NCBI GenBank assembly: GCA_045639125.1
Contig: JAZUCL010000018.1
Coordinates: 1-59,896 of the forward strand
DNA from: Eubacteriales bacterium
GTDB lineage: Bacteria > Bacillota > Clostridia > Oscillospirales > QAMX01
DNA: 59,896 nt
Direction of reading: 5' to 3'
In this document: one piece after another, positions 9,511 through 51,015 of the stretch
How positions within the stretch are numbered: position 1 is the first letter of the stretch
Layout of the letters: each line of letters starts with the position of its first letter
The notes under the pieces: generated by a model
Databases searched by the model: none
The model's input: the letters and a program-made list of their open reading frames with translations, nothing else
What the model was told of the DNA's origin: nothing
Made by a program: the position numbers and the translations under genes

Positions 9511-9550
9511 AGCCATGCCTTCAGCAAGCATGGCTTCGATTTTTATTTTA
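9511..9550. terminator. Bidirectional terminator between the oxidoreductase and the M42 peptidase
   Basis: Hairpin aatcgaagccatgc-cttcagcaa-gcatggcttcgatt flanked by A/T runs. Confidence 0.65.
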
Positions 9551-10534: not shown

Positions 10535-10552
10535 TATAATTACCTCTTTAAT

Positions 10553-11572
10553 TTACAATGAAAACTTTGCAAGGAATGTCTTTATAAACCGCAGCATATT
10601 GTCCATATCCTCAATTTTTGCTACTGATGAGGCAGAATGGATATATCTCACAGCACATGATACTGCCATAACTTTTGCACCGCCTGCATTTTTACTTATT
10701 ATTCCTGCGTCTGTACCGCCCGCAACTATGCTTTTTGTCTGATACGGGATATTTTCACTCTCGCAGATTGAAAATGCCTGCTGCCACATATCCTTTGTGT
10801 AAATTGTACCGCCATCAATTATAGGTATAACAGGCCCTGCACCAAGTTGACACGCCTTTTTTGCACCTTTTACATTTGCAAGGTCTGCTGCTGTTGTAGT
10901 TTCCAGTACGATTGCTACGTCAGGTTTAATGCGATATGATGCAACACTTGCTCCTCGCAATCCAGCCTCCTCTTGCACAGTAAATACAAACCACGTATCT
11001 ATACTTGTGCCTTCTTCAATTAGTTTCATCATCAAAGCACAGCCTATACGGTCGTCCAATGCCTTTGCCTTCAAAAATCCTTCTCCATACTCGTTAGGCT
11101 CGCTGTCAAATGCAACATAATCTCCAAGCGTTACGTATTTTTCTGCTTCTTCACGAGATGTGGCACCTATGTCAATGTACATATCCTCAAATGGCGGAAG
11201 TTTCTTTCGCTCCTCACCTTTTGTCAGATGTACCGCCTTTATTCCAATAACACCTTTAGTCTTCTTTTCACCGATGCGAACAGGACACGCAAGTACAACT
11301 TTCGGATCAATTCCTCCTGCTGTTACAAAGCGGAGAAAACCATCGTCGGTAATATCACTGACAAGAAAACCCACCTCGTCCATGTGGGCAGTAATCATTA
11401 CTGTCTTTCCACAGTTCTTCTTACCCTTTTTGAACACATAAAGGTTTCCCAATACATCTACGTACAGTTCATCAGCATTTGGCTCGACAACACTGCGAAT
11501 ATATGTGCGAACTTTATTTTCATAACTGCTTACACCGTCAATGGTACACAGCCTTTTTACTGTTTCAAGCAT
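10553..11572 (-). CDS. M42 family metallopeptidase, paralog 2
   Basis: Carries TAHMDEVGF, DDRIGC and QEEAGLRGA. Confidence 0.8.
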   Translation of the reverse strand: MLETVKRLCTIDGVSSYENKVRTYIRSVVEPNADELYVDVLGNLYVFKKGKKNCGKTVMITAHMDEVGFLVSDITDDGFLRFVTAGGIDPKVVLACPVRIGEKKTKGVIGIKAVHLTKGEERKKLPPFEDMYIDIGATSREEAEKYVTLGDYVAFDSEPNEYGEGFLKAKALDDRIGCALMMKLIEEGTSIDTWFVFTVQEEAGLRGASVASYRIKPDVAIVLETTTAADLANVKGAKKACQLGAGPVIPIIDGGTIYTKDMWQQAFSICESENIPYQTKSIVAGGTDAGIISKNAGGAKVMAVSCAVRYIHSASSVAKIEDMDNMLRFIKTFLAKFSL

Positions 11573-11622
11573 TGTTATACTTATGCCCTACAGGGCGTTC
11601 CTTTCTTCGTAATTAAAAAGTG

Positions 11623-12660
11623 TCAACTAACTTCAAACATTTCACAGATAACTTCTGCAAGGAGTCTGCCAACCGATTCAATATCCTCCGTTTTAACAAC
11701 TTCTACAGGAGAGTGCATATATCTGAGAGGTAGCGACACAAGACCTGTTGCCACACCAAAACGGACAACTTGCATAGGAGTAATATTTGTGCCGGTAAAA
11801 CCACTTACCACCTCTATTGTATGGGGAATTTCTTTTTTCTTGGCAACGGATATAATAAGGTCTGTAAATGTGCGATTAAGACTTGTGCCTTTTGTAATAC
11901 ACGCACCACTTCCTGCCTCAAATCCCTTTGTTTTAGGAACGTCCGGGGAAGTAGCATGGGTAACATCTACGGCAATAGCGTAGTCAGGGAATTGGGTATA
12001 TGTGGCAGTTATTGCTCCATAGGAGTTTCGTTCCTCACCTGAACTGCCAAGTACAATAACATCAGCACAAAGTTTCTTGTCTTTTATAAGTTCCATTGCG
12101 TATAAAATAGCGACAAAACCTGCTCTATCATCAAGACCGCAACCACCGATAAACCCGTTATTAAGTTCAAAATGTGGTGCTGCAAGGCAAATAGGTGTAC
12201 CTATTTTTATTCGTTCTTTCAACACATCGTCTGCCATACCAAAATCTATCAGCATATTTGATATAGGCACAGCCTTATCACGTTCAGACGCCGTCTGCAC
12301 GTGGGGCGGTAATGCCGTAATAATACCGTAAAAGCGTTGCCCATTATCAGTATCGGCATAGACTTCTTTTGTCTGAAGCAGACGTGGGTCAAACCCACCG
12401 CTTTGAGTAAAGCGGACAAAACCGCCCTTTTCATACCCTGATACGATGAAACCTATCTGGTCAAGATGTGCGTCAAGCAGTATTCGTGGTGGAGAGTCTA
12501 AGCCACAAGAACGAACACCTACTGCATTTGAAAGAGGTGTCGTTTCAACTATGTCACAGTAAGGTTTTAACAGTTGACAGGCATATTCTGCTACGCCCAT
12601 TTCGTAACCTGAAACGCCCAGTAAGGCACACAGGTCGAACAGTGTCTTTTTTATATCCAC
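11623..12660 (-). CDS. M42 family metallopeptidase, paralog 3
   Basis: Carries DAHLDQIGF, DDRAGF and SSGEERN. Confidence 0.75.
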   Translation of the reverse strand: MDIKKTLFDLCALLGVSGYEMGVAEYACQLLKPYCDIVETTPLSNAVGVRSCGLDSPPRILLDAHLDQIGFIVSGYEKGGFVRFTQSGGFDPRLLQTKEVYADTDNGQRFYGIITALPPHVQTASERDKAVPISNMLIDFGMADDVLKERIKIGTPICLAAPHFELNNGFIGGCGLDDRAGFVAILYAMELIKDKKLCADVIVLGSSGEERNSYGAITATYTQFPDYAIAVDVTHATSPDVPKTKGFEAGSGACITKGTSLNRTFTDLIISVAKKKEIPHTIEVVSGFTGTNITPMQVVRFGVATGLVSLPLRYMHSPVEVVKTEDIESVGRLLAEVICEMFEVS

Positions 12661-12673
12661 AAACTTTACCTCT

Positions 12674-12991
12674 TTAAGATAATTTAATAAACTCTCGGCA
12701 ACCGCAACGTGGGCAGGAAGTGTTATCAGGTGACATTACACTACCGCACACACTGCATTTAACATCGGCATTTTTACTCTTTATAAGCGTATTGATACGC
12801 TCATTTGTTGTGCGTATATCACGCTGTATCTCATCAAGTTTCGTCATTATAAACGCAAAAGCAATATACAATCCGCCTGACAGTATACCTGACAAAAGAC
12901 CTAATAAAAATCCGCCAAAGCCTATACTTATTCCACTTATGATACCAATGAGTAAATTGGCTATTGCAAGGCCAATACACACCTTTATCAT
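12674..12991 (-). CDS. Small membrane protein with a C-terminal zinc-ribbon (CSVCG...CPRCGC)
   Basis: Two hydrophobic helices followed by a CxxC...CxxC motif. Confidence 0.5.
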   Translation of the reverse strand: MIKVCIGLAIANLLIGIISGISIGFGGFLLGLLSGILSGGLYIAFAFIMTKLDEIQRDIRTTNERINTLIKSKNADVKCSVCGSVMSPDNTSCPRCGCREFIKLS

Positions 12992-13014
12992 TTTAATTAT
13001 CTCCTTTTTGCCAA

Positions 13015-14394
13015 TTAAAATTCATTGACGATCTCTTTGTATCGCTGTCCACGCTGTGCAAAGTTTTTGAATTGGTCAAATGCAGCACAGGCAGGTGACA
13101 GCGTTACAATATCTCCTGCCGTTGCAATCTCTCTTGTGTATGAAACTGCCTTTGTAAAATCGTCAAATTCAACGATAGGAAGCGTCTTTTCATTATATTC
13201 CGGGCAATCGGTTACACATTTACGTATCTTTTCAGCCGTTGCACCGCAAAGTACAAGTGCCTTTACGTGTTTTATAATTTCAGGGCCAAGTACATCAAAA
13301 GGTATGTGCTTATCGTAACCGCCGGCAATTAAAATTACCTTGCGGTCAAACGCACGAAGTCCTGCTATAACACGAGTCGGTGACGTTGCTATTGAATCGT
13401 TATAATAGCGTACTTCGTCAAGTTCTCTTACAAGTTCACAACGATGTTCAACGCCTGAAAATGTTTTTGCCACCTCAACAATATGTTCTACACCAACAAG
13501 CCCCCATACAGCACCTATTGCAGCCATATAGTTTTCTACGTTGTGAATACCGGGGATACGAATATCGGCAGTTGCCATAATTACAGTTTCATTGCCGTTT
13601 TCTCTAACAATTATTTCACCGTTACGACAGTAAACTCCATCAGCACCACTATCCATTTTAGAAAATACTACCGTTTTACCTACTGTTTCCGACACAAAAC
13701 CTGCAGTTATATCGTTGTCTGCGTTTAGCACAACACGGTTATCTTTTGACTGATTAAGAAAGATATTTTTCTTTGCCGACACATATTCCTCCATACCACG
13801 GTGCATATCAAGGTGGTTGGGAGAAAGATTAGTGATAACGGCAATATCCGGGCTTTTTTTCATAGTCATTAACTGGAAACTTGAAAGTTCCACGACAGCA
13901 AAATCGGTAGGTTTAATGTTTGGCGTATCTGCAAGGAGTGGGTGTCCAATATTACCGCCTAAGTGGCAAGTGTAACCTGCCTGAGTCAAGAGGGTATATA
14001 TAAGGGTCGTAGTTGTCGTCTTGCCGTCACTACCTGTTACAGCAATTATCGGACACGGACAGAGGTCAAAAAACACCTCAAGTTCACTTGTCACAACACC
14101 ACCTAACTCTCTCACCCGCTCCAACGCAGGCAAGTCGGGACGCATACCCGGTGAACGAAACAGCACGTCTGCAAAAAGGTTATCAAGATATCCCTCACCA
14201 AGACGAAGGGTTACTCCCTTGTCTGTAAGGTTATTTACAATATCGCCAAGTTCATCTCTATTCTTTTTATCGCATACGATAACTTTTGCCCCTGAGTCAC
14301 ACAGTATATCAATAAGTGGTCTGTTACTTACTCCAATGCCAAGAAGTGCCACCGTTTTATCTTTCAAACTTTTTATATATTCGCTAAACGTCAT
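13015..14394 (-). CDS. murD: UDP-N-acetylmuramoyl-L-alanine--D-glutamate ligase
   Basis: Mur ligase motifs (GSDGKTTTTTLI) and an N-terminal GIGVSNRP segment. Confidence 0.9.
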   Translation of the reverse strand: MTFSEYIKSLKDKTVALLGIGVSNRPLIDILCDSGAKVIVCDKKNRDELGDIVNNLTDKGVTLRLGEGYLDNLFADVLFRSPGMRPDLPALERVRELGGVVTSELEVFFDLCPCPIIAVTGSDGKTTTTTLIYTLLTQAGYTCHLGGNIGHPLLADTPNIKPTDFAVVELSSFQLMTMKKSPDIAVITNLSPNHLDMHRGMEEYVSAKKNIFLNQSKDNRVVLNADNDITAGFVSETVGKTVVFSKMDSGADGVYCRNGEIIVRENGNETVIMATADIRIPGIHNVENYMAAIGAVWGLVGVEHIVEVAKTFSGVEHRCELVRELDEVRYYNDSIATSPTRVIAGLRAFDRKVILIAGGYDKHIPFDVLGPEIIKHVKALVLCGATAEKIRKCVTDCPEYNEKTLPIVEFDDFTKAVSYTREIATAGDIVTLSPACAAFDQFKNFAQRGQRYKEIVNEF

Positions 14395-15650: not shown

Positions 15651-15732
15651 ATTTTCAATAGACAAGGCTTTTGTTCCCGCAATCTCTTGCGTTTTCAAAA
15701 GCCTTTTACTTTTTTTGAAAGGAGTATGCCGT

Positions 15733-18006
15733 ATGAATCCATTTTACCGATTAAGTCCGTTTATCCAAGAGTACATATATGCTAAAGGTTGGACACATCT
15801 ACGTGCAATTCAGACGGCTGCGTGTCACGTTATTTTTGAAACGGACGACAATTTGCTCCTATCGGCATCAACAGCATCAGGTAAAACAGAGGCGGCATTT
15901 TTCCCTATTCTTACACTTCTTGACGAAGATCCACCTGCAAGTGTCGGTGCATTGTATATCGGACCGCTTAAAGCCCTTATAAATGATCAATTTCTTCGTC
16001 TTAACGACTTATGTAAAGAGGCTAATATCCCTGTATGGCATTGGCACGGCGATGTGAATCAATCCCACAAGGAGCGTCTTGTGAAAAACCCGTCAGGAAT
16101 ACTTCAAATTACACCTGAATCGTTGGAAGCACTTTTAATGCGTCGTCACAACGATATTGTCCGTCTGTTTGGTGATTTGCGTTTTATCGTCATTGACGAG
16201 GTGCACTCTCTAATGAGAGGTGACAGGGGCGGACAAGTTCTCTGCCTTATGGAGCGACTTGCTCGGCTGTCGGGAGCGAACCCTCGCCGTATCGGTTTAA
16301 GTGCTACTATCGGTGATTTAGACACAGCAGGAAAATGGCTTGCAGGCGGTACAAATAGGAAAACATCTGCACCTGTCATTCCAAACACAAACAGCACATG
16401 GCGTATATCTATGGAGCATTTCTATATTTCAGACCGTAATATCTCAATTAGTGACCGCCACGCAAAATTACCTAAAAACACCAATTCAAAAAATGTATCC
16501 CCTACTCCAATTAAAATTGAGCCGACTGTTTCCTTAAATCCCATTGACTCTGCACCAAATAACACTGATTTGGGGCTTGGATATATCTTCAATCATACAG
16601 AGGGCAAAAAGTGCCTTGTATTTTGCAACTCCCGTGAGGAGTGCGAAGCAGTCACTACTACCCTACGCCGTTACTGTGACGAAAAGCATATTGCCGACCG
16701 TTTTCTTATCCATCACGGCAATTTGTCTGCATCATATCGTGAAACGGCAGAAGACCGTATGCGTGACGAGAACTCATGCCTCACTACAGTTACAACAGCC
16801 ACGTTGGAACTGGGTATCGACATTGGACGGCTTGAACGTGCATTTCAAATTGATGCACCTTTTATGGTATCGTCATTTCTTCAACGTATGGGGCGTACAG
16901 GCAGACGTGACGCACCACCTGAAATGTGGTTTGTTATCCGTGAAGATGAACTTTTACACACAGCCACACTGCCACAGACAATACCGTGGAAATTATTGCA
17001 AGGTATCTCACTCATTCAACTGTACTTGGAAGAGCGTTGGGTTGAACCTCCAAAACTTGACAGGTTGCCATATAGCCTTTTATATCATCAAACGCTGGCC
17101 ACTCTTGCATCGTGCGGTGAACTAAACCCCGCTGACCTTGCAAGACGTGTGCTTACTCTAACTCCTTTCCAAAATATATCCCAAGACGATTTTAGACTTC
17201 TTTTGTATCATCTTCTTGAAAATGAGCATATTGAGCGTACTGAAACAGGCGGTTTGATTGTAGGACTTAAAGGTGAGCGAGTAGTCAACTCATATAAATT
17301 CTATGCAGTATTTCGTGAAGATGAACTCTTTACTGTCCGTTGGCAGTCAAGGGAACTTGGTACTATCGTTATGCCTCCCCCTGTTGGTGAGCGTATCGCT
17401 TTAGCAGGTCAGGTATGGGTTGTAACAGAACTTGACTTGAAACGCAGACTCATTTTTGCAGAGCCTGTCAAGGGTCAAGTACCTGCGTTTTTTGGTCTTT
17501 GTCCGGGTGACATTCACACAAAAGTTTTAGAGCGAATGAAACGACTTTTATTTGAGGATATCGTACCTAAGTATCTTCGTCCAAATGCTGTTTCACGGCT
17601 TATGGAAGTTCGTGAAGTTATTAAAAACGCAAATTGCGACTGTACACTCGTCCACTTAGGCGGTGATATGTGGTGTCTTATGCCATGGCTTGGTACTTAC
17701 GCATTTCTTGCCTTGGAGCGATTTTTGAAACTAAAATGTGCAGGTGCGTTAGGTATGACTTCTATTGAGTCAAGCAGACCATATTTCATTCAATTTAAGA
17801 TGAAAGCGAGCCGTCAGGAGTTTATTGACACTATTCACGCCATTGCCGATGAACCTCTCGACCCTATGGAACTGATATACCACGGAGAAACACCCCTTTT
17901 TGAAAAGTACGATGAGTACGTACCCGAGGGACTTATCAGAAAAGGTTTTGCAAAGGGCATATTGGATATCAACACAATGCTTGAACGTCTTAAAGAGTTA
18001 AACTAA
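15733..18006 (+). CDS. DEVH-box superfamily-2 helicase (Lhr-like) with a long C-terminal domain
   Basis: Helicase motifs I ASTASGKTEA, II VIDEVH, III SATIGD and VI QRMGRTGRR. Start taken at MNPFYRL with an AAGGAG RBS. The ORF-track start overlaps corA and is rejected. Confidence 0.8.
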   Translation: MNPFYRLSPFIQEYIYAKGWTHLRAIQTAACHVIFETDDNLLLSASTASGKTEAAFFPILTLLDEDPPASVGALYIGPLKALINDQFLRLNDLCKEANIPVWHWHGDVNQSHKERLVKNPSGILQITPESLEALLMRRHNDIVRLFGDLRFIVIDEVHSLMRGDRGGQVLCLMERLARLSGANPRRIGLSATIGDLDTAGKWLAGGTNRKTSAPVIPNTNSTWRISMEHFYISDRNISISDRHAKLPKNTNSKNVSPTPIKIEPTVSLNPIDSAPNNTDLGLGYIFNHTEGKKCLVFCNSREECEAVTTTLRRYCDEKHIADRFLIHHGNLSASYRETAEDRMRDENSCLTTVTTATLELGIDIGRLERAFQIDAPFMVSSFLQRMGRTGRRDAPPEMWFVIREDELLHTATLPQTIPWKLLQGISLIQLYLEERWVEPPKLDRLPYSLLYHQTLATLASCGELNPADLARRVLTLTPFQNISQDDFRLLLYHLLENEHIERTETGGLIVGLKGERVVNSYKFYAVFREDELFTVRWQSRELGTIVMPPPVGERIALAGQVWVVTELDLKRRLIFAEPVKGQVPAFFGLCPGDIHTKVLERMKRLLFEDIVPKYLRPNAVSRLMEVREVIKNANCDCTLVHLGGDMWCLMPWLGTYAFLALERFLKLKCAGALGMTSIESSRPYFIQFKMKASRQEFIDTIHAIADEPLDPMELIYHGETPLFEKYDEYVPEGLIRKGFAKGILDINTMLERLKELN

Positions 18007-18040
18007 AAAACGGACGATTTTTAATAATCGTCCGTTTTTT
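18005..18040. terminator. Bidirectional terminator between the helicase and folD
   Basis: Hairpin aaaaaacggacgatt-tttaat-aatcgtccgtttttt. Confidence 0.75.
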
Positions 18041-18045
18041 ATAAT

Positions 18046-22194: not shown

Positions 22195-22452
22195 AGCATT
22201 GACGGGAAGAAGTAGCGTATCACGTCTTTTCAGAGAGATTGCCCATTTGCTGCAAGGGCAGTTAAAGAAACTATACGTGAATACCCTCCCTGAGTGCCTT
22301 GCCCAACGGCATTTGCCAAGTAAGCGAGGACGTTTCCTGCGTTAAAGGACCTAAAGTGGCGACTATTGTCGCAATCAGAGTGGAACCGCGATGTTATTCA
22401 CCGCCTCTGACAAATGGGGATACCCTCATGTCGGAGGTGTATTTTTTTACTC
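22195..22452 (+). ncRNA. T-box riboswitch leader upstream of thrS
   Basis: AGAGA motif at the stem I base (cagagagatt). T-box sequence aatcagagtggaaccgcg at 22373-22390 matches AANNNGGGUGGNACCGCG. A terminator hairpin (cctctgaca...tgtcggagg) plus a T7 run lies just before the thrS RBS. Confidence 0.8.
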
Positions 22453-22484
22453 CGACAAACGAATTTGAAAGGAGCATATACACT

Positions 22485-24422
22485 ATGGAAATTAAACTTA
22501 AAGACGGAAGTATTTTGCAAGTAGAAGATGGTGCTACGTGTATGGACGCTGCGTTCACCTTGTCAGGTGGTCTTGCAAGAGCATCTTTACTTGCTGAAGT
22601 AGACGGTACTGTCTGCGAAATGAGCACTGTACTTAAATCCGGTCAATCCCTTAATATTTTGACAGGTGATAGTGAGGAAGGTCTTCGTGCATTACGTCAT
22701 ACTGCCTCCCACGTACTTGCAGAGGCTGTAAAGCGTCTGTACCCCAGTGCTAAACTTGCTATTGGCCCTGCTATTGATTCAGGTTTCTACTATGATTTTG
22801 ACTATGATGAGGGCTTCGACAACGATAAACTTGCGGCAATCGAAAGTGAAATGAAGAAAATCATCAAGGAAAATTCAAAACTTGAGCGTTTTACTTTACC
22901 TCGTGATGAGGCTATCAAGTTTATGGCTGAGAAAGGTGAGGACTACAAAGTAGAACTTATCTCCGATTTGCCCGAAGATGAAATAATTAGTTTCTACCGT
23001 CAAGGTGACTTTGTAGACTTGTGTGCAGGTCCTCATATCCCTGACACAGGCAGAATTAAGGCATTTAAGTTGCTGTCCTCAACAGGTGCATACTGGAGAG
23101 GTGACTCCTCTAAGAAAATGCTTCGCCGTATCTACGGTACAGCATATACTAAGAAAGACGAACTGCAAGCACATCTTGAGCGTTTGGAAGAGGCTAAAAA
23201 GAGAGATCATAACAAACTCGGTCGTGACCTTGAACTCTTTAACACCGTTGATATTATCGGACAAGGTCTGCCTATTCTTCTTCCCAAGGGTGCTCGTATC
23301 ATTCAGACGTTACAGCGTTGGATTGAGGACGAGGAGCAAAAGCGTGGCTATCTTTTGACAAAGACTCCCCTCATGGCAAAGCGTGACTTATATCGTGTAT
23401 CAGGTCACTGGGATCACTATCGTGACGGTATGTTTATCTTAGGCGACCCCGATGACGAAACGAAGGAGTGCTTCGCACTTCGTCCCATGACTTGCCCATT
23501 CCAGTATCAAGTATTCTTAAACAGAATGCGTTCATATCGTGATTTGCCAATGCGTCTTGGTGAAACATCCACACTCTTTAGAAATGAGGACTCAGGCGAA
23601 ATGCACGGTCTTATCCGTGTACGTCAGTTCACCATCTCTGAGGGGCATTTAATTCTCTGCCCTGAACAGTTAGAAAATGAGTTCCGTGAGTGTTTTGACC
23701 TTGCAAACTACTGTATGGAAACTCTTGGTCTTAAAGAAGACTGTACGTTCCGATTCTCCCAGTGGGATCCCAACAATACTGCAAAGTACGAGGGTACACC
23801 TGAGCAGTGGGAACACGCACAAGGCGTAATGAAGAAGATTTTGGACGACTTGAATATCGACTATAAGGTTGGTATTGACGAGGCGGCATTCTACGGCCCG
23901 AAACTTGACATTCAAATTAAGAATGTACATGGCAAGGAAGATACCCTCATCACTATCCAGATAGATATGCTTCTTGCAGAGAAGTTTGGCATGGAATATG
24001 TTGACCGTGACGGACAGAAAAAACGTCCCTACATCATTCACAGAACTTCCATGGGTTGCTATGAGCGTACTTTGGCTCTCCTTATTGAGAAATACGCAGG
24101 AGCATTCCCCACATGGCTTGCACCTGTACAGGCAAAAATTCTTCCCCTTACTGAGCGTCAGCATGGTGCGGCTTGGGAACTTGAGAAGAAACTGCGTCTT
24201 ATGGGTATGCGTATTGAAGTTGACGACAGAAACGAAAAAATCGGCTACAAAATCCGTGAAGCACAACTTGAAAAAGTTCCGTATATGCTCGTGCTTGGTG
24301 ACAAGGAAGTTGAGGAAGGCACAATTGCTGTCAGAAGCCGTAAGGACGGTTCAAACGTCACAATGCCCGAGGCTGAGTTCATTGCAAAACTTAAAGAAGA
24401 AATCGAAACAAAAGCAAGATAA
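22485..24422 (+). CDS. thrS: Threonine--tRNA ligase
   Basis: TGS, editing and class II aaRS regions are recognisable (HRDLELF..., class II motifs). Start at MEIKLKDG with a GGAGC RBS. The ORF-track start at 22299 lies inside the T-box leader and is rejected. Confidence 0.9.
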   Translation: MEIKLKDGSILQVEDGATCMDAAFTLSGGLARASLLAEVDGTVCEMSTVLKSGQSLNILTGDSEEGLRALRHTASHVLAEAVKRLYPSAKLAIGPAIDSGFYYDFDYDEGFDNDKLAAIESEMKKIIKENSKLERFTLPRDEAIKFMAEKGEDYKVELISDLPEDEIISFYRQGDFVDLCAGPHIPDTGRIKAFKLLSSTGAYWRGDSSKKMLRRIYGTAYTKKDELQAHLERLEEAKKRDHNKLGRDLELFNTVDIIGQGLPILLPKGARIIQTLQRWIEDEEQKRGYLLTKTPLMAKRDLYRVSGHWDHYRDGMFILGDPDDETKECFALRPMTCPFQYQVFLNRMRSYRDLPMRLGETSTLFRNEDSGEMHGLIRVRQFTISEGHLILCPEQLENEFRECFDLANYCMETLGLKEDCTFRFSQWDPNNTAKYEGTPEQWEHAQGVMKKILDDLNIDYKVGIDEAAFYGPKLDIQIKNVHGKEDTLITIQIDMLLAEKFGMEYVDRDGQKKRPYIIHRTSMGCYERTLALLIEKYAGAFPTWLAPVQAKILPLTERQHGAAWELEKKLRLMGMRIEVDDRNEKIGYKIREAQLEKVPYMLVLGDKEVEEGTIAVRSRKDGSNVTMPEAEFIAKLKEEIETKAR

Positions 24423-24428
24423 CAACCA

Positions 24429-24492
24429 ATACCCCTCGAAAATGAACTGCACCAGTTTGTGCAGTTCAAAAATCGAGGGGTATTTAACTTTT
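24429..24492 (+). terminator. Intrinsic terminator after thrS (long interrupted hairpin followed by a T-run)
   Basis: atacccctcga...gaactgcac-cagtt-gtgcagttc...tcgaggggtat followed by TTAACTTTTATT. Confidence 0.7.
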
Positions 24493-24592
24493 ATTAAATA
24501 CTTTTTCCCTATAAAAGTATTGTAACCAAAATAAATCCGTGATACAATGAAAGAATAGACAAAAACGGCTGTTTTGTAAAAGAGGTGAGAAA

Positions 24593-26698
24593 ATGGAGTG
24601 GGAATACGTTGATATGCCGATACAAAGGATAGAAACCTTGAATCAAATATCAGTACCCGACAACGTTTCAATTGATTTTTCCTATGATACGACACGTTGC
24701 ATTCTTTTGATGTCAATATCCGTATTAGATACTACCTGTAATTATCTTGGCAGAGGGCGTATTCGCATGGATAATTCCTGCTTTCAAATTTCTCAGTTAT
24801 CAGTTGTAGACCCGTTTCTTGTAACCAAAAGTCATATTCTTCCAAAAAACTTCAAAATATTCTTCAAGGCAATATATCCAAAACTTCTGCGTGATAAATT
24901 GCCTGTCACTTGTTTCGTTTCAATGCGTGAATTACCTGTCGTTACTATTTCCGTTTCAAGCGTTACAAATGAAGAAGTACGCTACCATATCCATTGGGTA
25001 GAACACGGACAAGATGCGAAAGATGTGGCAGGGCTTGACGGCTACGTATTTGTAGACAACATTATATTAAAAGGCAGCAGAAAGTTAATTGATTTAATGC
25101 CTCACCATACTGACGGAGAATATATATCACATGGTAACGAGGCAAAACGGCTTGGAATGTTGTGTGACGTGGCAGGCTTTATGTTCTGCGGAAAACAACT
25201 AAATGACTTACGAATACTTGGCAGAGGTCTGACACTTCAAAAAGAAAATACAATTTCGTCTTTCTCTCTTGATTTCGATAAATCTCCCATAACTGAAAAT
25301 ATAAATCAACCGACTACACCACCTGCCGAGCCTATTATTATCCACTATGACGGCCCCGCCCTTTTGTCAGTACAACTTTTGGAATCTGCCCGTGAAGCAA
25401 ACTCCATGTCTGTCCGCTTTGCTACTGAGGCAAAAAAGTATGCATCTAAAAAAGGAAGTCCCTGTGAATATATCCAACTTAAATGCTACTGGCCCACCTA
25501 TGCAGGTATGGATGAAATGCAAAAGAAGTATTTCTTCTACTTTCGCACGGCATTTATGTCGGGGCAAACTCCAAAAGCCGACTTGTCATATATTTTTATT
25601 GCGGTATATGAACTTATCAATCGTGGTTTCTCACCGTCTGAGGACAACTTTCGCATACTGCTTCGCTACTGGAGTGCATATCGTGACAAGTACCCAAAAC
25701 TTGACCTATATATGTCTAAGTGGTGCATTGACTATATTCTGACAAATGAGTTGCCTATATCACTAAGCGAAGTGGCTCTTGCTGTACCACAGGCAATATC
25801 TTACTATGCCGATTATGCCGATGCAGTTTTATCTGACTTGCTAAAAGACGGACTTCATTCACTACCCTGTGAGGCGTGGCGACTGTATTGCCGATATGAC
25901 GTTACTCAAAGCAGGCTATGGGATAGTCAGTACCGAACAGAGTACGAAATGACACTTCGACGTGTATTTACTGCACTCCAAGAATATGTAGAGGAAGTTA
26001 AAGGCGTATCACTTCTAAAACTATATAAACCAAACGTGCAAATTAAAGACTACCCTGCCTTTTGCGGTGCGGTGTGTGCAAGAGTATACAGGAAAAATAT
26101 CCGTTTGGAATACGTCCCCTATTCAAAGAGTGTTCGTCTTAATAATCTACTTGAATCTGTCGTTAAGTATACGGAGAATGCTCTTCGTATACGTCATAAA
26201 ATCATGGGTAGACTCCGTGTAGGGAATTTACCTGACAGTCTTTTGAAAGTTCTCGACCAAGCAATTATGCCCTTGCAACAAAAAGTTGAGGTGCGTGTCC
26301 CTCCGATACAAATTGACCTTTCCAAAGCACTTACACTTGAAAAAAGTTCTTGGGACAATACACGAGCAATGCTTGACGCAGTTGACAATGCCGATGAGGT
26401 AATATTTGAAATTACCACAACAGATTCACCGTCTGTAACACAAAATACCGCCACGGATAATTCCTTCTTTTCCCAACTGTCCGACACGGCAAGACTCGTT
26501 TTATGTGCAATGTTAGACGGTGCTGACAGAGTAGAAATTGACAACTTATGCTTAGCACAGTTTTCATTTTTTGACGCAGTTTGTGAGGAAATAAACGAAA
26601 AGGCAGTCGACTTATTAGGTGACATTATTTTAGATGGCGATACCCTTATTGAAGATTATATTGAACTTATAAACGTACAGAGAAAGGAGTTACCATGA
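24593..26698 (+). CDS. Large hypothetical protein (701 aa), candidate TerB-N/TerB-C-like partner of the downstream DUF2791-type ATPase
   Basis: Strong RBS (AGAGGTGAG). Its stop overlaps the next start as ATGA. No catalytic motif is recognisable. The TerB-like call comes from the conserved partnership with DUF2791 ATPases and is inference, not a motif-level match. Confidence 0.45.
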   Translation: MEWEYVDMPIQRIETLNQISVPDNVSIDFSYDTTRCILLMSISVLDTTCNYLGRGRIRMDNSCFQISQLSVVDPFLVTKSHILPKNFKIFFKAIYPKLLRDKLPVTCFVSMRELPVVTISVSSVTNEEVRYHIHWVEHGQDAKDVAGLDGYVFVDNIILKGSRKLIDLMPHHTDGEYISHGNEAKRLGMLCDVAGFMFCGKQLNDLRILGRGLTLQKENTISSFSLDFDKSPITENINQPTTPPAEPIIIHYDGPALLSVQLLESAREANSMSVRFATEAKKYASKKGSPCEYIQLKCYWPTYAGMDEMQKKYFFYFRTAFMSGQTPKADLSYIFIAVYELINRGFSPSEDNFRILLRYWSAYRDKYPKLDLYMSKWCIDYILTNELPISLSEVALAVPQAISYYADYADAVLSDLLKDGLHSLPCEAWRLYCRYDVTQSRLWDSQYRTEYEMTLRRVFTALQEYVEEVKGVSLLKLYKPNVQIKDYPAFCGAVCARVYRKNIRLEYVPYSKSVRLNNLLESVVKYTENALRIRHKIMGRLRVGNLPDSLLKVLDQAIMPLQQKVEVRVPPIQIDLSKALTLEKSSWDNTRAMLDAVDNADEVIFEITTTDSPSVTQNTATDNSFFSQLSDTARLVLCAMLDGADRVEIDNLCLAQFSFFDAVCEEINEKAVDLLGDIILDGDTLIEDYIELINVQRKELP

Positions 26699-28029
26699 GC
26701 AATTTACCACAAATTCCAAAACGCATATCCTCTGCCCTCATAAATTCCATGTCGGCAGGTGTTGTGGCTCGAACAGGTCTTGAATATATCGCAATAGGAC
26801 GGTCTGAGGAAATACGTGCTATGCTTGAAGACTATGAAACTATTTCTTCCGGCGGCTCTGCTTTTCGACTTATCTGTGGACGATACGGAAGCGGTAAAAG
26901 TTTTCTATTATCCTTAATGAGAAGTCACGCCCTTGACCGTGGTTTTGTAACTGCCGATGCAGATTTATCTCCTGAACGCCGTTTGGCAGGCTCAAAAGGT
27001 CAAGGACTTGCTACGTATCGTGAACTGATAAAAAATCTATCTACAAAAGCATCTCCCGACGGCGGTGCTTTGCCAAATATTCTCAGTAAGTGGATTTCTT
27101 CAGTCCAACTTAAAAAAGCAAAGGAACTCGGTCTTTTGCCAAACACTCCTGAACTTATAGCCGCCTCTGAAGTGGAAATTTTAGAGTCTATAACATCTCT
27201 TGAAAGCATGGTGCACGGCTTTGACTTTGCCGCCGCTGTTGTTTCATTCTATCAAGGTACTGTCAGCGGTGACGACAATCAAAAGCAAGCGGCACTTCGT
27301 TGGCTTCGTGGCGAATACACTACGAAAACTGAGGCAAAGCACGAACTGAAAGTTTCGTCAATCATTGATGACGAAAGTTGGTATGACTATCTGAAACTTA
27401 TGAGTGCTTTGATGGTGTTGGCAGGATATCAGGGGCTTATCATCTATATTGATGAGGCTGTCAACCTATACAAAATCGTGCAGAGTGTTTCCCGTGAGGC
27501 AAACTACGAGAAAATATTGACGATTTTTAATGACTGTATGCAAGGCAGGCTGTCACATCTCGGATTTATCTTTGGTGGTACACCTCAATTTGTCGAGGAT
27601 ACCCGCCGTGGACTGTTTAGTTATGAGGCACTTCGTTCTCGTTTAAGCGGCAATCGTTTTGCCGATGATAATGCGGAAAATCGCTATGGTGTAAAAGATT
27701 TTCGCACTCCTGTACTAAAACTCGCCCCTCTATCTCCAGAGGAATTACTGGCACTTCTAAAACGTGTTTCGTATATCCACTCTGTCCACTACAACTGGGA
27801 GGTTCCTGTCAGCGATGAGCAACTTGCCCTGTTTGTCTCCGACGCAGTTGGACGTATGGGTGCCGATGTTCTGTTGACTCCACGTGAAGTAGTTCGTGAC
27901 TTTATGGGACTTCTCAACATTCTCCACCAAAATCCAAATACAAGTTTTGATGCTGTGGTATCTAAACTCGTTCCAACTGACTCATCTAATTCCTCTGAAG
28001 ATGATTTATTTACAGAATTTACGTTATAA
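26695..28029 (+). CDS. P-loop ATPase, DUF2791/BrxD-like (BREX-type ATP-binding domain)
   Basis: Walker A GRYGSGKSF and Walker B LIIYIDEA. The N-terminal region resembles BrxD-family proteins. Translationally coupled to the upstream gene. Confidence 0.65.
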   Translation: MSNLPQIPKRISSALINSMSAGVVARTGLEYIAIGRSEEIRAMLEDYETISSGGSAFRLICGRYGSGKSFLLSLMRSHALDRGFVTADADLSPERRLAGSKGQGLATYRELIKNLSTKASPDGGALPNILSKWISSVQLKKAKELGLLPNTPELIAASEVEILESITSLESMVHGFDFAAAVVSFYQGTVSGDDNQKQAALRWLRGEYTTKTEAKHELKVSSIIDDESWYDYLKLMSALMVLAGYQGLIIYIDEAVNLYKIVQSVSREANYEKILTIFNDCMQGRLSHLGFIFGGTPQFVEDTRRGLFSYEALRSRLSGNRFADDNAENRYGVKDFRTPVLKLAPLSPEELLALLKRVSYIHSVHYNWEVPVSDEQLALFVSDAVGRMGADVLLTPREVVRDFMGLLNILHQNPNTSFDAVVSKLVPTDSSNSSEDDLFTEFTL

Positions 28030-28080
28030 AAGCAAACGGAGTGGTATGATTAACACCACTCCGTATTTTACTTAAATTTC

Positions 28081-32931: not shown

Positions 32932-35900
32932 TTACTCATACTTTGTCCAATCGGGAACTTCCCTGAGAGAAGTCCATTTTTCAAAATTATGATCCTTCAT
33001 ATAGTAATTATGACTGTTTGTTGCCTCTTGAACTGCAAGATAATACCAAGCCGATTTGTCGCTATTATCAGGCCATTTTATCATATCAGCAAGCAAATCA
33101 TCTGCTGTTTCAGGAATACGATTAAGTACCCTGTTAATCATCGTCATTGCCTCTGCACGAGTGATAAATTGGTCTGGCTTGAATGTTCCGTCATCATAAC
33201 CCTTTATCCAACCATGTGCTGCTGCTTCGTGAATTTCTGCTTCTGCCCAATGACCATCAATATCTGTAAAGTTATCAATGATCGTATATTCAGAATCATC
33301 AAATCTTGCACAAATTGCCGCAAATTCAGCACGAGTAATAAACTCTGTAGGAGCAAAAACATCTACCGTTCTTCCTTCTACAATACCCAACTTTGTCATA
33401 GTTGAAATTGCCGTATTATACCATGCATTTTCATCTACGTCCTTATAGTTGTTCCAAGTTGTGAGGTTATTCTCTCTTAATTCAGCAGGCTTTAACAATC
33501 TAAAGAAGATTGTAGTAACTTCAGCACGGCTTATGTTGGCATTTGGTCTGACTGTTCCGTCAGCAAAACCAACAATATATGCAAAGTGATCCTCTGCGTT
33601 GAGTTGAGAAGGTGTTTCATATCCACTGTTTATGTCTTCATTAATCTTTATCCATGAAGCATATACAGTGATATTCTTGTTCATCACAACGCTACTTACA
33701 TCTTCGATAAGAGTTCTGTCAATGTGCCAACCATCGAAAATGTAACCTTCTCTTACAGGAACTTTTACAAGGTCAACAATTGTACCGGCAGCATATATTT
33801 CACTGTCTATCTTGTTTCCGCCGTTTGTTTCGTAGGTGAGAGTGTATATTGTTATGTCACTGCCACCGCTGCCAGGCGTTCTTTCAAACGAATAAGTGTA
33901 GGTAACTGTATCTGTGCCGGTAACCGTAGAAGGTAAAGTTACGTCCCATGTTCCGTTACCATAGCCATAGTTTGCTTTCATTCCTGTAGGAACATAACCC
34001 GTTATATCTGCTTGACCCGTCTTACTATAGTTTCCGTTTTCGTCAAGAAGATTCACAACATTTACAATGTCTGCAGTTGTATTGTCTGCCCATGTTCCGT
34101 TTACAACCTTAAAGATGACTTTTTTCTGGAATACGTCTGCAACATCGTCACCATCATCAGGATCTATGGTACCAATTTTATCTTCTTCCCATTGCGCAGT
34201 GTAAACGTGAACTATTTCACCTGTGCCATTGGTCTTTTCCCAACCCATGAACACGTAACCGTCTCTTGTTGGCGTTCCAAGGTCAATATTTGCTTTAAGT
34301 TCAATTGTTTGCACTGTTGTATGACTTTGTCCGTTATAGTTCCATACACCACCATTTGGATCAACCTGTATCTTCTCGTTTTCAGCATATTCTTCAGACT
34401 GAGGAGTCGGTTCAGGCTCATCTTCATTATATTCATCATACAAAACATCAGGAGTCTTATAGAAAACGAATGTATAAACAACAGGTTCTGTTCCGCTTAC
34501 CGTTGCCGGAGGAGTTTCTCTCCATTCACCTGGGGTATCGTGGTCAGGTGCTGCTACTGCTTTAGATACATTTGGAATAATGTTTGATATGTCAGATGTA
34601 CCTGTTTTGCTGTGAACTCCACCTTCAAGGAGATCGACTACCTTGACAATATCCGTATTTGATACTCCGTCCCAAGTTCCATTTATAATTCTAAATGTAA
34701 TCTTCTTCTGGTAAATATCAGGAATATTGTCTCCTTCATCAGGATCCTGTCCGCCACCAATAACATCTACATCATAGTAAAGTTTAAGTGTAACAATATC
34801 AGCAGGAGTTTTTATTTCCACAAGAGTTGCTGACTTTGTAGGATTCGATATTACCTCGTCTACACAATAGTTTTCATAATCGCCACCCGTTTTTGCTACT
34901 GCTGTTACCTTTTCGCCTATTTTATCTATTTTTGTTTCAGTATCGTTCGGTGTGGTTGGATATTCGCCGTTTGTGTTTACTCTGTAATGCTCAACAATGT
35001 ACTTTACCAAAACTGGTGTTATTACTGATGGGTCAGTCTCAATTCTTTCATACTGTGCTACAAGGGTAATAGATGTAACATTTTCTGCCCCTGCAAGTTC
35101 ACCGTAGGACTTAGTATTATCGACAACTACATCGCCCTTTTTCCAGCCTGTAAATTTGAATTGGTCTTTAACCGGATCGCTAATAGGTGTGCCCTGTCTG
35201 TCACAAAGAAGGTTTGCATCTGTATAATCTACAATTTTAGGTGAAATCGTCATATTTCCACCAATGTTGCCGCCTGCAAGATCGTAGTTTACAAGATACG
35301 GAGCCTTTTGGTTTGTAAATACAATTTGTGTTTCTGTGCCATTGATATTATTTATTGTGCCGTTAGAATAAACTGCATATCTTGCATCATCGTAAATCCA
35401 TGTGGAATTACCACTGTCATGAACCTCGTAAACATATATCGGATCTCCGCTATTAAAACGAGCATACTCCAATCCGGTAAGAGACACTTCTATCGGAGAG
35501 CCTTGTTTCTCTATATCGTTAGCACCAAGTATTATTGTACTTTCACCAATTACTCGTTCATGGAATACCGCTCTGAATGTAAAGGCTACTTCTGCTCCGT
35601 TTGCTTCTGGTTCCCCGACTGAATTCAAAAGTTTCTTTGTAAGTGTTCCGGTCGTTGGAATGATAAAGGTTTGATCGGGATTCTTTTCCCAGAAAGCGTG
35701 ATATACAACATCTTTTGCCGGCATTGCAATTTCAGAAAGGTTGACAACTCCTGCGAATTCTGAATTCTTATATGTTTCAAACCAGCCTTTTAATGTGTAC
35801 CCGAGTTTCGAGTTTGTATCTACTGCCGGCATCGGTAGTGCTGAGCCAAATTCTACATCAGAATAGGTTTCCTGTTCTAAATTAAGTTCTACAAATGTGC

Positions 35901-38670
35901 CATTATCCTGCTGCTGATAATACTTATATGTAACGTCATATTTTCTCTTAACCGATGTTACAATTACACTGTGGTCTGATTGTTTTGAAAGATGAACATC
36001 GCCACTTAAAATTCCATCACCATCTATTGTAAGATTAAATAATGTCGTGTTGGAAAGCATCATCGACGCATCATATTCATATCCGTCAACCCAAACAGAA
36101 CTTATCGAATAACCTTCATTAGCCTTAAAGAAAACCTCCAGTATTTCAGTATCATGGTGAGAATACCTTGTTCCGTCCATAATGATACTTCCATCGTCGT
36201 GGGCTGTTGTAAGGGTATAAACGATAGGTCTTGTATACACCTCAATTGCATGTCCCGACTGTACATTTGTAACCTGGAATATATATGAGCCGTCCGCCTC
36301 AAATGACACATTGTTGACCCCATTTTCCAAATCATACAAAGGTGTTCTTATGTCAAGCGGAGAATCATGACTTGAAGATGTAACGTGTATAATTTCAGAG
36401 ATTTCATAACCTGGATTAGCCTTGAAAACCATCTTTGCTGTATCAATACCGGCAGTAACCTCTTCACGATATGTATTTCCTATATGAATACCAGGAACAA
36501 TACTGCCTTCTACTGCAGGTTCAACTGTGAGAGTACCACCCTCATCTATTATACCACCAACAATATGAACGTTTTCGTTAACCATCTCAACATCCAAGTA
36601 AGAAGATTTAACTAAATTGATTTGGTAATCATTTTTATTTTGAAGGACGCAATCAAGCCTAAACATTGCCTCAGCGATGTTTTCTCCACTATTGATAGTG
36701 AGAGTTTTTTCTGCATTAGCAATATTGGCAAGAGTCCAGTTATCAAAATTGGTTACGTCAATGCTTTGTCCGGGATTAACTGAAAGCATTGCAATCACGG
36801 TATCGTCGTTTGTATCATTGGACAAGTTAGTATCGACAAGATAATACGCCATTGATACGCCTTCATTTCTAAAGCCATTAGGTCTTGAGAATGAAGGAAT
36901 CATATTCGCAAGGACTGCATTAAGAGTTGTAGCATTATAACTTAAGGTGTAACTTGTTTCTGTACCGATATGTTGCCACATTTCATCGTTAAGAAGGTTG
37001 TACCTCAAAGAAACGTTTTCATACTTATTTTCAGCAGTTATTACAGGCGTTGTTGACTCTGCATTCTGATAAATACCTGCACCATTGTTAGTGGGAAGAT
37101 ATCCTCCAAAAGTATCAGCATTTTCGTCTTCAACTATTGGTATGTAGATAACAAGTTTTCTGCCGTAATCTGTACCTCCCTGGCTATCCTTCGGACTTTC
37201 TGTTACACAGTGATATCCAAAGTTAAAGCCTGTTACATTGATAGTTTTGCCTTCCTTTATTTCTACTGTTGCTGTAGTGAAAGGTTTTTCTTCCAAAGCC
37301 CAACCGTTTGCCATTTTGTCAACGGTATAAACTGAAATTTGTTCACGGTTATATTCATATCCGTTTGACACCGGCAGACGGAATCCTTCTGAAATAGTAT
37401 CTGTAACAACAGATTTTTCGTCCAAAGTTGAATTTGATGTGATTGAGAATGCAATATCATGGAATACATTTGTTACCGCACTACCCTGTGTATGTGCAGA
37501 ATAATATGAGTCGGCAAACTTTGTACCAAGCGTGTTATAGTCAGTTGCATTTGGATAGTTGCTGGATAGTGCCTGAAGGAAGTTCACTGAATTTGAAGAA
37601 GGTGTTCCGAGATACATCGAGAAAATGTGTGTATTACTATCCTTCATTGCTTTTGCAGCAGAAATAGCGTTGTTTGCAACAGTTACATTAAAGTCTGTTT
37701 GTGTTGTCGGCACGCCGTCTGTGATAACAACTACTATTTTCTTACGATTTGCATACGTGCCTGCAGACTGACTGTCAAATATTTGTTTTGCCATTTGCAT
37801 ACCAAGATCGGTTCTCGTTGCGCCTTCTCCGTCAAGTTGAGTTATTGCCTCTGCTATTACACCACCGGTTGTAATATTGGCATATGTACAATTTACAAAT
37901 GCATCTGCATAGTTGTTATTTGTAAGTGAACCGTAAGAAATTCCAGGGGTTGTTGCAGGAACATTGTTTGTAACTGTTACACGTTCATAGATAGCGGTGC
38001 TTTGGATGTTAACCTTATCACCAACAGTAAAAGATCCATTTGTATACCAACCGGCATCACCATACACAGGAGTAAACCAATTATAATCTATCACTGGATT
38101 TTCATAATAATCAATAGAACTATATTCGTTTCCCGACTGAATATAATAGGTCTTAGATGTATCCAGAGTTGTTATGTCAGTTATCCTACTATAGTTAACA
38201 CTTGTTATAGTCTGGGTATTATAAACTGTAAGAATTTCCGTGTTATCGCCATAACCCGACTCACTTGCAAATCCTACAATTGCCAAACGGTAAGAATCAT
38301 CGTTTAATGTGTTAAAACTTGCCACTTCTGAGACGAATGAATTAACAGCATTTTTCATAATATTAAGTTTTGTTGTACCGTTTATAGATTCGTCCATAGA
38401 GCCGGACTGGTCAAGCACCAATACAATATCTGCCGGCATGGTAGATTGCGTTGTGCTTGTAGCACCGGTAGCGTAAGCCTCAAGTTTGATTTTTGCCGGT
38501 TGACCTAATGCCGCCGGCAAAAACTCCTTGGTAAATACAACAGGATCCGTTGCTCCAAAGGTTTCTATAGGAGCAAAATCTGTTGCCATAGAGGTTGTGA
38601 TTGAGGCAGGAAGCAAAGTCACAAACATTGCAATTGCCATAAAAATTGCCATAATTCTTCTTTTTTTCAT
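32932..38670 (-). CDS. Giant cell-surface protein (1912 aa): signal peptide, vWFA domain, multiple Listeria-Bacteroides (Flg_new) repeats and three C-terminal SLH domains
   Basis: Signal peptide MKKRRIMAIFMAIAMFVTLLPA. MIDAS motif VLVLDQSGSM. Repeats GYTLKGW, FKFTGWKKGD, YVFMGWEK and YIFDGWH. C-terminal SLH motifs (FADGTVRPNANISRAEV, ITRAEFAAICARF, ITRAEAMTMINRVL). Confidence 0.85.
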   Translation of the reverse strand: MKKRRIMAIFMAIAMFVTLLPASITTSMATDFAPIETFGATDPVVFTKEFLPAALGQPAKIKLEAYATGATSTTQSTMPADIVLVLDQSGSMDESINGTTKLNIMKNAVNSFVSEVASFNTLNDDSYRLAIVGFASESGYGDNTEILTVYNTQTITSVNYSRITDITTLDTSKTYYIQSGNEYSSIDYYENPVIDYNWFTPVYGDAGWYTNGSFTVGDKVNIQSTAIYERVTVTNNVPATTPGISYGSLTNNNYADAFVNCTYANITTGGVIAEAITQLDGEGATRTDLGMQMAKQIFDSQSAGTYANRKKIVVVITDGVPTTQTDFNVTVANNAISAAKAMKDSNTHIFSMYLGTPSSNSVNFLQALSSNYPNATDYNTLGTKFADSYYSAHTQGSAVTNVFHDIAFSITSNSTLDEKSVVTDTISEGFRLPVSNGYEYNREQISVYTVDKMANGWALEEKPFTTATVEIKEGKTINVTGFNFGYHCVTESPKDSQGGTDYGRKLVIYIPIVEDENADTFGGYLPTNNGAGIYQNAESTTPVITAENKYENVSLRYNLLNDEMWQHIGTETSYTLSYNATTLNAVLANMIPSFSRPNGFRNEGVSMAYYLVDTNLSNDTNDDTVIAMLSVNPGQSIDVTNFDNWTLANIANAEKTLTINSGENIAEAMFRLDCVLQNKNDYQINLVKSSYLDVEMVNENVHIVGGIIDEGGTLTVEPAVEGSIVPGIHIGNTYREEVTAGIDTAKMVFKANPGYEISEIIHVTSSSHDSPLDIRTPLYDLENGVNNVSFEADGSYIFQVTNVQSGHAIEVYTRPIVYTLTTAHDDGSIIMDGTRYSHHDTEILEVFFKANEGYSISSVWVDGYEYDASMMLSNTTLFNLTIDGDGILSGDVHLSKQSDHSVIVTSVKRKYDVTYKYYQQQDNGTFVELNLEQETYSDVEFGSALPMPAVDTNSKLGYTLKGWFETYKNSEFAGVVNLSEIAMPAKDVVYHAFWEKNPDQTFIIPTTGTLTKKLLNSVGEPEANGAEVAFTFRAVFHERVIGESTIILGANDIEKQGSPIEVSLTGLEYARFNSGDPIYVYEVHDSGNSTWIYDDARYAVYSNGTINNINGTETQIVFTNQKAPYLVNYDLAGGNIGGNMTISPKIVDYTDANLLCDRQGTPISDPVKDQFKFTGWKKGDVVVDNTKSYGELAGAENVTSITLVAQYERIETDPSVITPVLVKYIVEHYRVNTNGEYPTTPNDTETKIDKIGEKVTAVAKTGGDYENYCVDEVISNPTKSATLVEIKTPADIVTLKLYYDVDVIGGGQDPDEGDNIPDIYQKKITFRIINGTWDGVSNTDIVKVVDLLEGGVHSKTGTSDISNIIPNVSKAVAAPDHDTPGEWRETPPATVSGTEPVVYTFVFYKTPDVLYDEYNEDEPEPTPQSEEYAENEKIQVDPNGGVWNYNGQSHTTVQTIELKANIDLGTPTRDGYVFMGWEKTNGTGEIVHVYTAQWEEDKIGTIDPDDGDDVADVFQKKVIFKVVNGTWADNTTADIVNVVNLLDENGNYSKTGQADITGYVPTGMKANYGYGNGTWDVTLPSTVTGTDTVTYTYSFERTPGSGGSDITIYTLTYETNGGNKIDSEIYAAGTIVDLVKVPVREGYIFDGWHIDRTLIEDVSSVVMNKNITVYASWIKINEDINSGYETPSQLNAEDHFAYIVGFADGTVRPNANISRAEVTTIFFRLLKPAELRENNLTTWNNYKDVDENAWYNTAISTMTKLGIVEGRTVDVFAPTEFITRAEFAAICARFDDSEYTIIDNFTDIDGHWAEAEIHEAAAHGWIKGYDDGTFKPDQFITRAEAMTMINRVLNRIPETADDLLADMIKWPDNSDKSAWYYLAVQEATNSHNYYMKDHNFEKWTSLREVPDWTKYE

Positions 38671-50983: not shown

Positions 50984-51015
50984 CACGTTTTTACATCAGC
51001 GAAAGGAGAAATAAA

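Follow-up and report, generated by a model that had tools for sequence, protein, structure and literature searches.

A Shango system with an unlinked helicase gene

The window analysed here (contig JAZUCL010000018.1 of an Eubacteriales bacterium, all 59,896 nucleotides) carries two overlapping genes at 24593-28029, sngA and sngB, and a helicase gene, sngC, upstream of them. According to our analysis, the window very probably holds a complete Shango anti-phage system (SngA, SngB and SngC) whose ancestral sngA-sngB-sngC operon was broken by a chromosomal rearrangement. Shango is a known system; what is new is the helicase gene, which is unlinked from the other two, and SngA, which is extended by an N-terminal domain. 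The same split is kept in a relative. Coordinates of the features are collected in Table 1.

The original prediction had described a 701-residue protein and a 444-residue P-loop ATPase as a Shango-type SngA/SngB module. Both open reading frames (ORFs), their lengths and positions, their ATGA overlap at 26695-26698 and the Walker A and B motifs of the ATPase were found exactly as described. The overlap is preceded by an AAGGAG 7 nt upstream, and sngB is predicted to be translationally coupled to sngA through it. Hidden Markov model searches with both proteins matched every family in question. SngA contains TerB_N (residues 271-406, 4e-16, 59.8 bits for a cut-off of 25) and TerB_C (residues 563-686, 5e-7, 30.5 bits for a cut-off of 26.3), and the PADLOC SngA model covers its residues 205-693 (174.7 bits, 1.4e-51). 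SngB, with both Walker motifs intact, matches PF10923 (BrxC_BrxD, formerly DUF2791) over 410 of 414 profile positions (516.5 bits, 6.9e-155) and the PADLOC SngB model with 584.5 bits (3.8e-176); the PADLOC BrxD model stays well under this score (165 bits, 6.5e-49), which bears out the assignment to Shango. The Pfam matches of both proteins are far above chance level.

A Ter (tellurite-resistance) stress cluster was also considered and set aside. The TerB domain proper (PF05099) was not found in SngA, where TerB_N and TerB_C were the sole Pfam matches at E<=1. No Ter family, and no TerD, TerZ, TerC or TerA neighbour, appeared in the top-25 summary of the 37 other window ORFs with 200 or more residues or in direct scans of the genes at 13-39 kb.

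The upstream helicase is SngC

The prediction had also noted a DEVH helicase upstream and taken it for a probable housekeeping enzyme, so that the pair would be a minimal two-component variant. The gene exists, and its product is SngC. The PADLOC SngC model is matched at positions 5-716 of 720 (876.3 bits, 5.4e-264), and the second-best model, BrxHI, reaches about half that score (421 bits, 1.7e-126). Since the SngC model is matched from end to end, the window encodes all three Shango components. The motifs of a superfamily 2 (SF2) DEAD/DEAH helicase are intact: GKT (residues 50-52), DEVH (155-158), SAT and motif VI QRMGRTGRR. At E<=1e-3, Pfam recognises DEAD, Helicase_C, Cas3-like_C_2 and ResIII in the protein and nothing else. 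An identical 757-residue product is already on record; exact-sequence look-ups for the contigs of SngA and SngB gave no match.

The closest solved structures by sequence are of the Lhr/MrfA type (5v9x, 7lhl and 6znp, E about 1e-24). SngC thus shares the DExH SF2 core with the repair helicases Lhr and MrfA (YprA), but the likeness is confined to residues 25-209, in the first RecA domain, and neither the winged-helix and DEAD_assoc modules of Lhr nor the C-terminal DUF1998 module of MrfA was detected by Pfam. The C-terminal 330 residues appear to be specific to SngC. Between the RecA lobes, at residues ~228-280 (window 16410-16570), lies a low-complexity insert of about 45 residues (SDRNISISDRHAKLPKNTNSKNVSPTPIKIEP...) that is not in the SngC of the contiguous locus L004.

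Comparison with known systems

Shango was described in E. coli and in P. aeruginosa PA14, where it comprises SngA, SngB and SngC (Millman et al., 2022; Johnson et al., 2023, PMC10250203). Its anti-phage activity was reported in PMC10250203 and in bioRxiv 10.1101/2022.05.11.491447. In the literature searched, protection is modest and broad and is shown for the systems of these two species only, and "membrane surveillance" was proposed from the TerB association. The window system has the same three families, with the PADLOC Shango models matched nearly full length, and keeps sngA and sngB coupled and in the canonical order. It differs in three respects. The three genes are not adjacent in the order sngA-sngB-sngC: instead of lying directly 3' of sngB, sngC stops at 18006, upstream of the sngA start at 24593 and on the same strand, and 6.6 kb with five housekeeping genes lie between them. 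SngA bears an extra domain of about 210 residues with no recognisable fold. Finally, the context is one of housekeeping genes and not a defence hotspot or island.

SngB and SngC could also be seen as the remnants of a type 2 bacteriophage exclusion (BREX) system, namely its accessory genes brxD and brxHI left behind after loss of the core. Type 2 BREX/Pgl reportedly pairs BrxD, a DUF2791 ATPase, with BrxHI, an Lhr-like helicase, as Goldfarb et al. are said to have found in 2015. The pairing in the window is homologous, and SngB does match BrxD in PADLOC and in NCBIfam (NF033438, 168 bits, 3.5e-49), as SngC matches BrxHI. However, both proteins fit the SngB and SngC models far better, the NCBIfam equivalog remains under its cut-off of 350, and the TerB_N/TerB_C partner defines Shango and not BREX. 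PADLOC found no PglX, PglZ, BrxC/PglY, BrxA, BrxB or BrxL among the 37 other ORFs, and the window is also without PglW. We consider this explanation extremely improbable.

Contiguous operons carry the closest relatives of SngB and SngC outside the window clade

Over its full length, the window SngC is 69% identical to SngC of L176, and it is 68% and 44% identical to those of two further contiguous loci, L089 and L004. L089, from an uncultured Clostridia, has sngA-sngB-sngC flanked by tsaD/tsaE, lon and tuf. In L176/L177 and L175, likewise from uncultured Clostridia, the contiguous sngABC genes encode a SngA of the same subfamily as in the window, with the N-terminal domain (P0135, P0143). In L176 the intergenic gaps measure 27 and 38 nt; those of L175 are wider, at 320 and about 200 nt. 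These operons keep their three genes adjacent, whereas the window clade lost the linkage. Their SngB proteins are 66% (L176) and 64% (L175) identical to that of the window, compared to only 49-55% for 61 other contiguous, canonical loci, and L175 SngC is, like that of L176, 69% identical. When ranked over the first 310 residues of SngC, the order is L085 (80%), L087 (70%), L175 (69%) and all others at 67% or less; L176 is not in this ranking and was compared separately over the full length. Because SngB identity among the 61 contiguous loci spans merely 49-55%, nearest-neighbour comparisons were used instead of a rank correlation of SngB against SngC identity. SngB and SngC of L175 and L176 appear to be the closest relatives of the window proteins outside its own clade. 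The affinities of SngB and SngC agree, as expected if one ancestral operon was split.

The split is rare and is kept in a relative

Of 80 metagenomic loci surveyed around SngB relatives, 76 were informative. The sngC gene starts at most 700 nt after sngB in 73 of these, lies farther away in two (0.9 and 4.3 kb) and is missing within 9.8 kb in one. In L121 (3722-8034), 4.3 kb of other ORFs stand between sngB and sngC.

The arrangement of the window recurs in contigs from two JGI samples. Both samples yielded a corA-sngC contig (L085 and L086; SngC 81% identical, no sngAB within 10 kb) on which CorA is 74%, the Mur ligase 67%, Lgt 62% and Fe-ADH 82% identical to the window. The same samples yielded thrS-sngA-sngB contigs (L002 and L003; ThrS 80%, SngB 81%, SngA 48%), and on an ENA contig (L001) an inverted NUDIX-dnaI-dnaD-like block comes after thrS-sngA-sngB. 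Both halves thus appear to have been kept intact, in the same two places, by a clade whose proteins have diverged by about 20%, and the split is no artefact of assembling one contig.

Orthologous thrS-dnaI regions were also sought via ThrS in species-representative genomes, which gave 80 loci with ThrS 64-73% identical (Oscillospirales metagenome-assembled genomes, MAGs). The species of the window itself is not among them. They show no synteny; within 10 kb of thrS they carry no sng genes, and dnaD and dnaI are missing near thrS. As synteny is missing altogether, they offer no empty thrS-dnaD site for comparison. The conserved thrS...dnaI neighbourhood that had been proposed therefore stands for the close relatives and fails for the 80 nearest ThrS species representatives. 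The proposal of an insertion hotspot is not supported: thrS-sngA-sngB is kept in relatives (ThrS 76-80%), the GC content of the pair shows no shift from its flanks, neither tRNAs nor flanking repeats were found around it, and no integrase, transposase or phage gene is among the 37 other ORFs.

Other relatives have one half of the system. In L171 (5252-6551), an N-domain sngA is followed by a sngB in two frames, from a frameshift or an assembly error, and sngC is absent; here the system may be in decay. L087 (10001-14395) and L088 carry a lone SngC-type helicase, 69-70% identical, between cvpA and lgt-folD, with no sngAB within 10 kb, in a neighbourhood that continues with gdpP, rplI and dnaB. 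The linkage of sngC with lgt-folD, inverted in the window, suggests that the split is older or that the helicase is an orphan. In L172 (215-10949), an N-domain sngAB precedes zip, sua5 and further genes and lies a few genes upstream of a Mur-ligase/M42-peptidase block. The corresponding block of the window (9548-14394) adjoins corA-sngC, a hint that the ancestral operon, sngABC, was located next to such a block.

Evidence against one split system

Several observations weigh against a single, broken system. L172 has no sngC in 8 kb, L115 (7756-17551) has sngAB and no sngC in the 9.8 kb downstream, and L087 has the helicase alone; such relatives mean that the modules might work independently. 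That the corA-sngC and thrS-sngAB contigs of the JGI samples belong to one organism is something we infer from the shared samples and equal divergence. Co-regulation is not evident either. The gap between corA and sngC is occupied by a hairpin with a T-run, probably the corA terminator, which has an equivalent at the same site in L085 and L086. A promoter for sngC alone would hardly fit there; sngC appears to be without one and may be read through from corA. A search for a regulatory motif shared by the sngC and sngA upstream regions returned one 9-mer only, AATAGACAA, for which ~0.1-0.3 occurrences are expected by chance and which is not kept in relatives. In addition, the window and most related loci lie among housekeeping and metabolic genes, outside defence islands. 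Finally, no mechanism of Shango is given in the literature searched, so that every mechanistic step proposed below is inferred.

The first of these observations are those expected if sngAB were an autonomous two-gene defence module and the upstream helicase an unrelated housekeeping enzyme. This would also fit the promoter and terminator predicted for sngAB itself, which is not co-transcribed with the helicase. However, the helicase fits the SngC model best, at twice the score of BrxHI, lacks the accessory domains of Lhr and MrfA, has its nearest relatives among contiguous operons in the same SngA/SngB subfamily, and is kept at 81% in the relative that also keeps sngAB. With a matching sngC 6.6 kb away in the same window, we regard a helicase-less module as quite unlikely.

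Conservation rates and genomic setting

Set against the products of neighbouring genes, SngB is 80% identical, compared to 76% for ThrS, 70% for the NUDIX protein, 66% for DnaI and 56% for the DnaD-like protein. Overall, SngB (80-81% to its orthologues in L001-L003) and SngC (81%) are conserved like ThrS, CorA and Fe-ADH, and SngA is only 48% identical. Within SngA, identity is 57-62% in TerB_N, 50% in the N-terminal domain and 15-22% in two linkers. All three genes are intact and constrained.

We then looked at the flanks of 44 non-redundant contiguous Shango loci (within L091-L170). Almost all of the 111 flanking ORFs are metabolic or regulatory, for example acetate kinase, ThrE, LysR, GNAT and dockerin proteins; a type III restriction enzyme, a PDC-S01 and a UvrD-like protein, one of each, are the isolated exceptions. 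The scan of IMG/VR viral contigs gave no relative, and PADLOC detected no other defence system among the 37 other ORFs of the window.

The housekeeping-like setting and the slow evolution of SngB and SngC keep alive a reading in which the three proteins form a vertically inherited chromosome/RNA-maintenance or stress system, core-like and with drifting gene order, that is not directed against phages. The absence of relatives from viral contigs, the near absence of PADLOC matches around the 44 loci and the abundance of the helicase are in line with it: SngC has more than 8000 homologues at E<1e-50, and the best 120 clusters are 67-81% identical, nearly all of them 67-69%. On the other side, E. 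coli and P. aeruginosa are protected from phages by homologous systems of three genes, and the arrangement is not universal, since sng genes are absent within 10 kb of thrS in the 80 nearest ThrS species representatives. The rapid divergence and domain swapping of SngA fit an arms-race sensor, and sngB is broken in L171. We hold such a maintenance role to be very unlikely. Two of the SngC homologues (P0080 and P0081, 67% identical) are labelled Victivallaceae, from cross-phylum transfer or MAG mis-binning.

SngA carries an additional N-terminal domain

Canonical SngA proteins have about 490-570 residues, and most of the 44 SngA sequences that were aligned show nothing corresponding to residues 1-200 of the window SngA. 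No Pfam family covers this region. A HMMER search with residues 1-215 against 1.84 billion representative proteins matched 15 proteins, 12 of which have 700-764 residues with the match at or near the N-terminus. All seven homologues scanned contain TerB_N, and four of the seven contain TerB_C as well. AlphaFold2 gave a mean predicted local distance difference test (pLDDT) of 39 with a 4-sequence alignment; after addition of the 11 homologues found by HMMER, the 15-sequence alignment gave a two-lobed alpha/beta model (pLDDT 92.3, predicted template modelling score 0.80). Structure comparison with this model gave no significant match.

The domain is found without a contiguous sngC in the window clade, in L172 (no sngC in 8 kb) and in L171 (no sngC). 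The domain and the split are not strictly tied, as L175 and L176 carry the domain and are contiguous.

Proposed mechanism and significance

Under the favoured explanation of a complete but split Shango system, translational coupling would keep SngA and SngB at a fixed ratio, and the two would form a sensing/ATPase module. SngA, with about three times the evolutionary rate of SngB and SngC, has variable domains and gained one, which suggests that it is the specificity determinant and likely the sensor subunit; its added domain may bind nucleic acid. Once infection is sensed, SngA-SngB would engage SngC supplied in trans. SngC would then be the effector, an SF2 translocase with phage nucleic acid or replication intermediates as its substrate, presumably in the 3'-5' direction of the Lhr/Ski2-like family. 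Pfam scans recognised no nuclease or toxin domain in SngA, SngB or SngC.

The split could itself be functional. The N-domain SngA-SngB would then be a free-standing sensor recruiting an unlinked, constitutive SngC, which would also serve the cell as an Lhr-like housekeeping helicase for repair. We consider this unlikely. If true, Shango would be modular, a "sensor plus borrowed helicase", and defence finders based on colocalisation would systematically miss a class of trans-acting systems embedded in the core chromosome.

Catalogues such as PADLOC and DefenseFinder depend on adjacency. When the helicase gene lies five genes off, a complete Shango system can easily pass for absent or for an "incomplete or novel two-gene" system, as it did in the original prediction. 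The locus is also a natural test of SngC working in trans. In gut Clostridia, Shango has housekeeping genes as neighbours and shows a similar degree of conservation, which is unusual for defence and bears on its real role.

Local architecture and transcription signals

Table 1. Features of the split Shango locus and of its surroundings in the window
Feature	Coordinates	Strand	Description	Basis
sngC	15733..18006	+	757-aa Lhr/Ski2-like SF2 helicase	PADLOC, Pfam DEAD + Helicase_C
sngA	24593..26698	+	701 aa, TerB_N/TerB_C protein	Pfam, PADLOC
sngB	26695..28029	+	444 aa, DUF2791/BrxC_BrxD P-loop ATPase	PF10923, PADLOC
SngA extra N-terminal domain	24593..25228	+	aa 1-212, then variable Pro-rich linker aa 213-252	
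SngB Walker A	26878-26904	+	GRYGSGKSF, aa 62-70	read in translation
SngB Walker B	27436-27459	+	LIIYIDEA, aa 248-255	read in translation
Spacer splitting the system	18046..24422		folD (-), lgt (-), Fe-ADH (+), ymdB (-), T-box-thrS (+)	Pfam
Hairpin and T-run	15664..15705	+	between corA stop and sngC ribosome-binding site; AAGGCTTTTG...CAAAAGCCTT then TTTACTTTTTTT	
Terminator, 16-bp stem	18004..18041		common to sngC (+) and folD (-)	terminator scan
T-box leader RF00230	22190-22411	+	upstream of thrS, 113.8 bits	
thrS terminator hairpin	24432..24480	+	CCCCTCGA...TCGAGGGG then TATTT	read from sequence
sngAB promoter (predicted)	24520..24548	+	TTGTAA, 17-nt spacer, TG-n-TACAAT (extended -10)	consensus scan
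Hairpin, 12-bp stem, bidirectional terminator	28036..28064		between convergent sngB and DUF4358 lipoprotein genes	terminator scan

The flanks of the pair are as had been claimed, with thrS upstream and, downstream, a lipoprotein gene on the opposite strand and then the DnaD-like and DnaI-like genes. ThrS has the Pfam domains tRNA-synt_2b, HGTP_anticodon and TGS, and given its T-box leader the real start lies at about 22470-22490 and not at the TTG at 22299 chosen by the ORF finder. Hairpins equivalent to its terminator stand 3' of thrS in L001 and L002. The claim that the pair has its own promoter region agrees with the predicted extended -10 promoter, whose elements (TTGTAC, spacer, TGGTAGAAT) are kept in L001, L002 and L003.

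A perfect 9-nt palindrome at 24497-24521 (AATACTTTT, 7-nt spacer, AAAAGTATT) lies directly against this promoter's -35 element, and L001 and L002 have a different palindrome, TCGAAAATTTGTTCGA, at its position. It may be a candidate operator for some regulator. Downstream of sngB and on the opposite strand, the DUF4358 protein has the lipobox LISAVAC; the DnaB_2/DnaD-like, DnaI-like (IstB-type ATPase) and NUDIX genes follow.

Farther away in the window, three tandem M42 aminopeptidase paralogues are encoded at 9548-12660 (-) and a 1912-residue SLH/VWA/Flg_new surface protein at 32932-38670 (-). At 49970-53469 (+) lies an mcsB-clpC-like pair, whose AAA+ protein yields spurious PADLOC matches (PDC-M37B and DolB).

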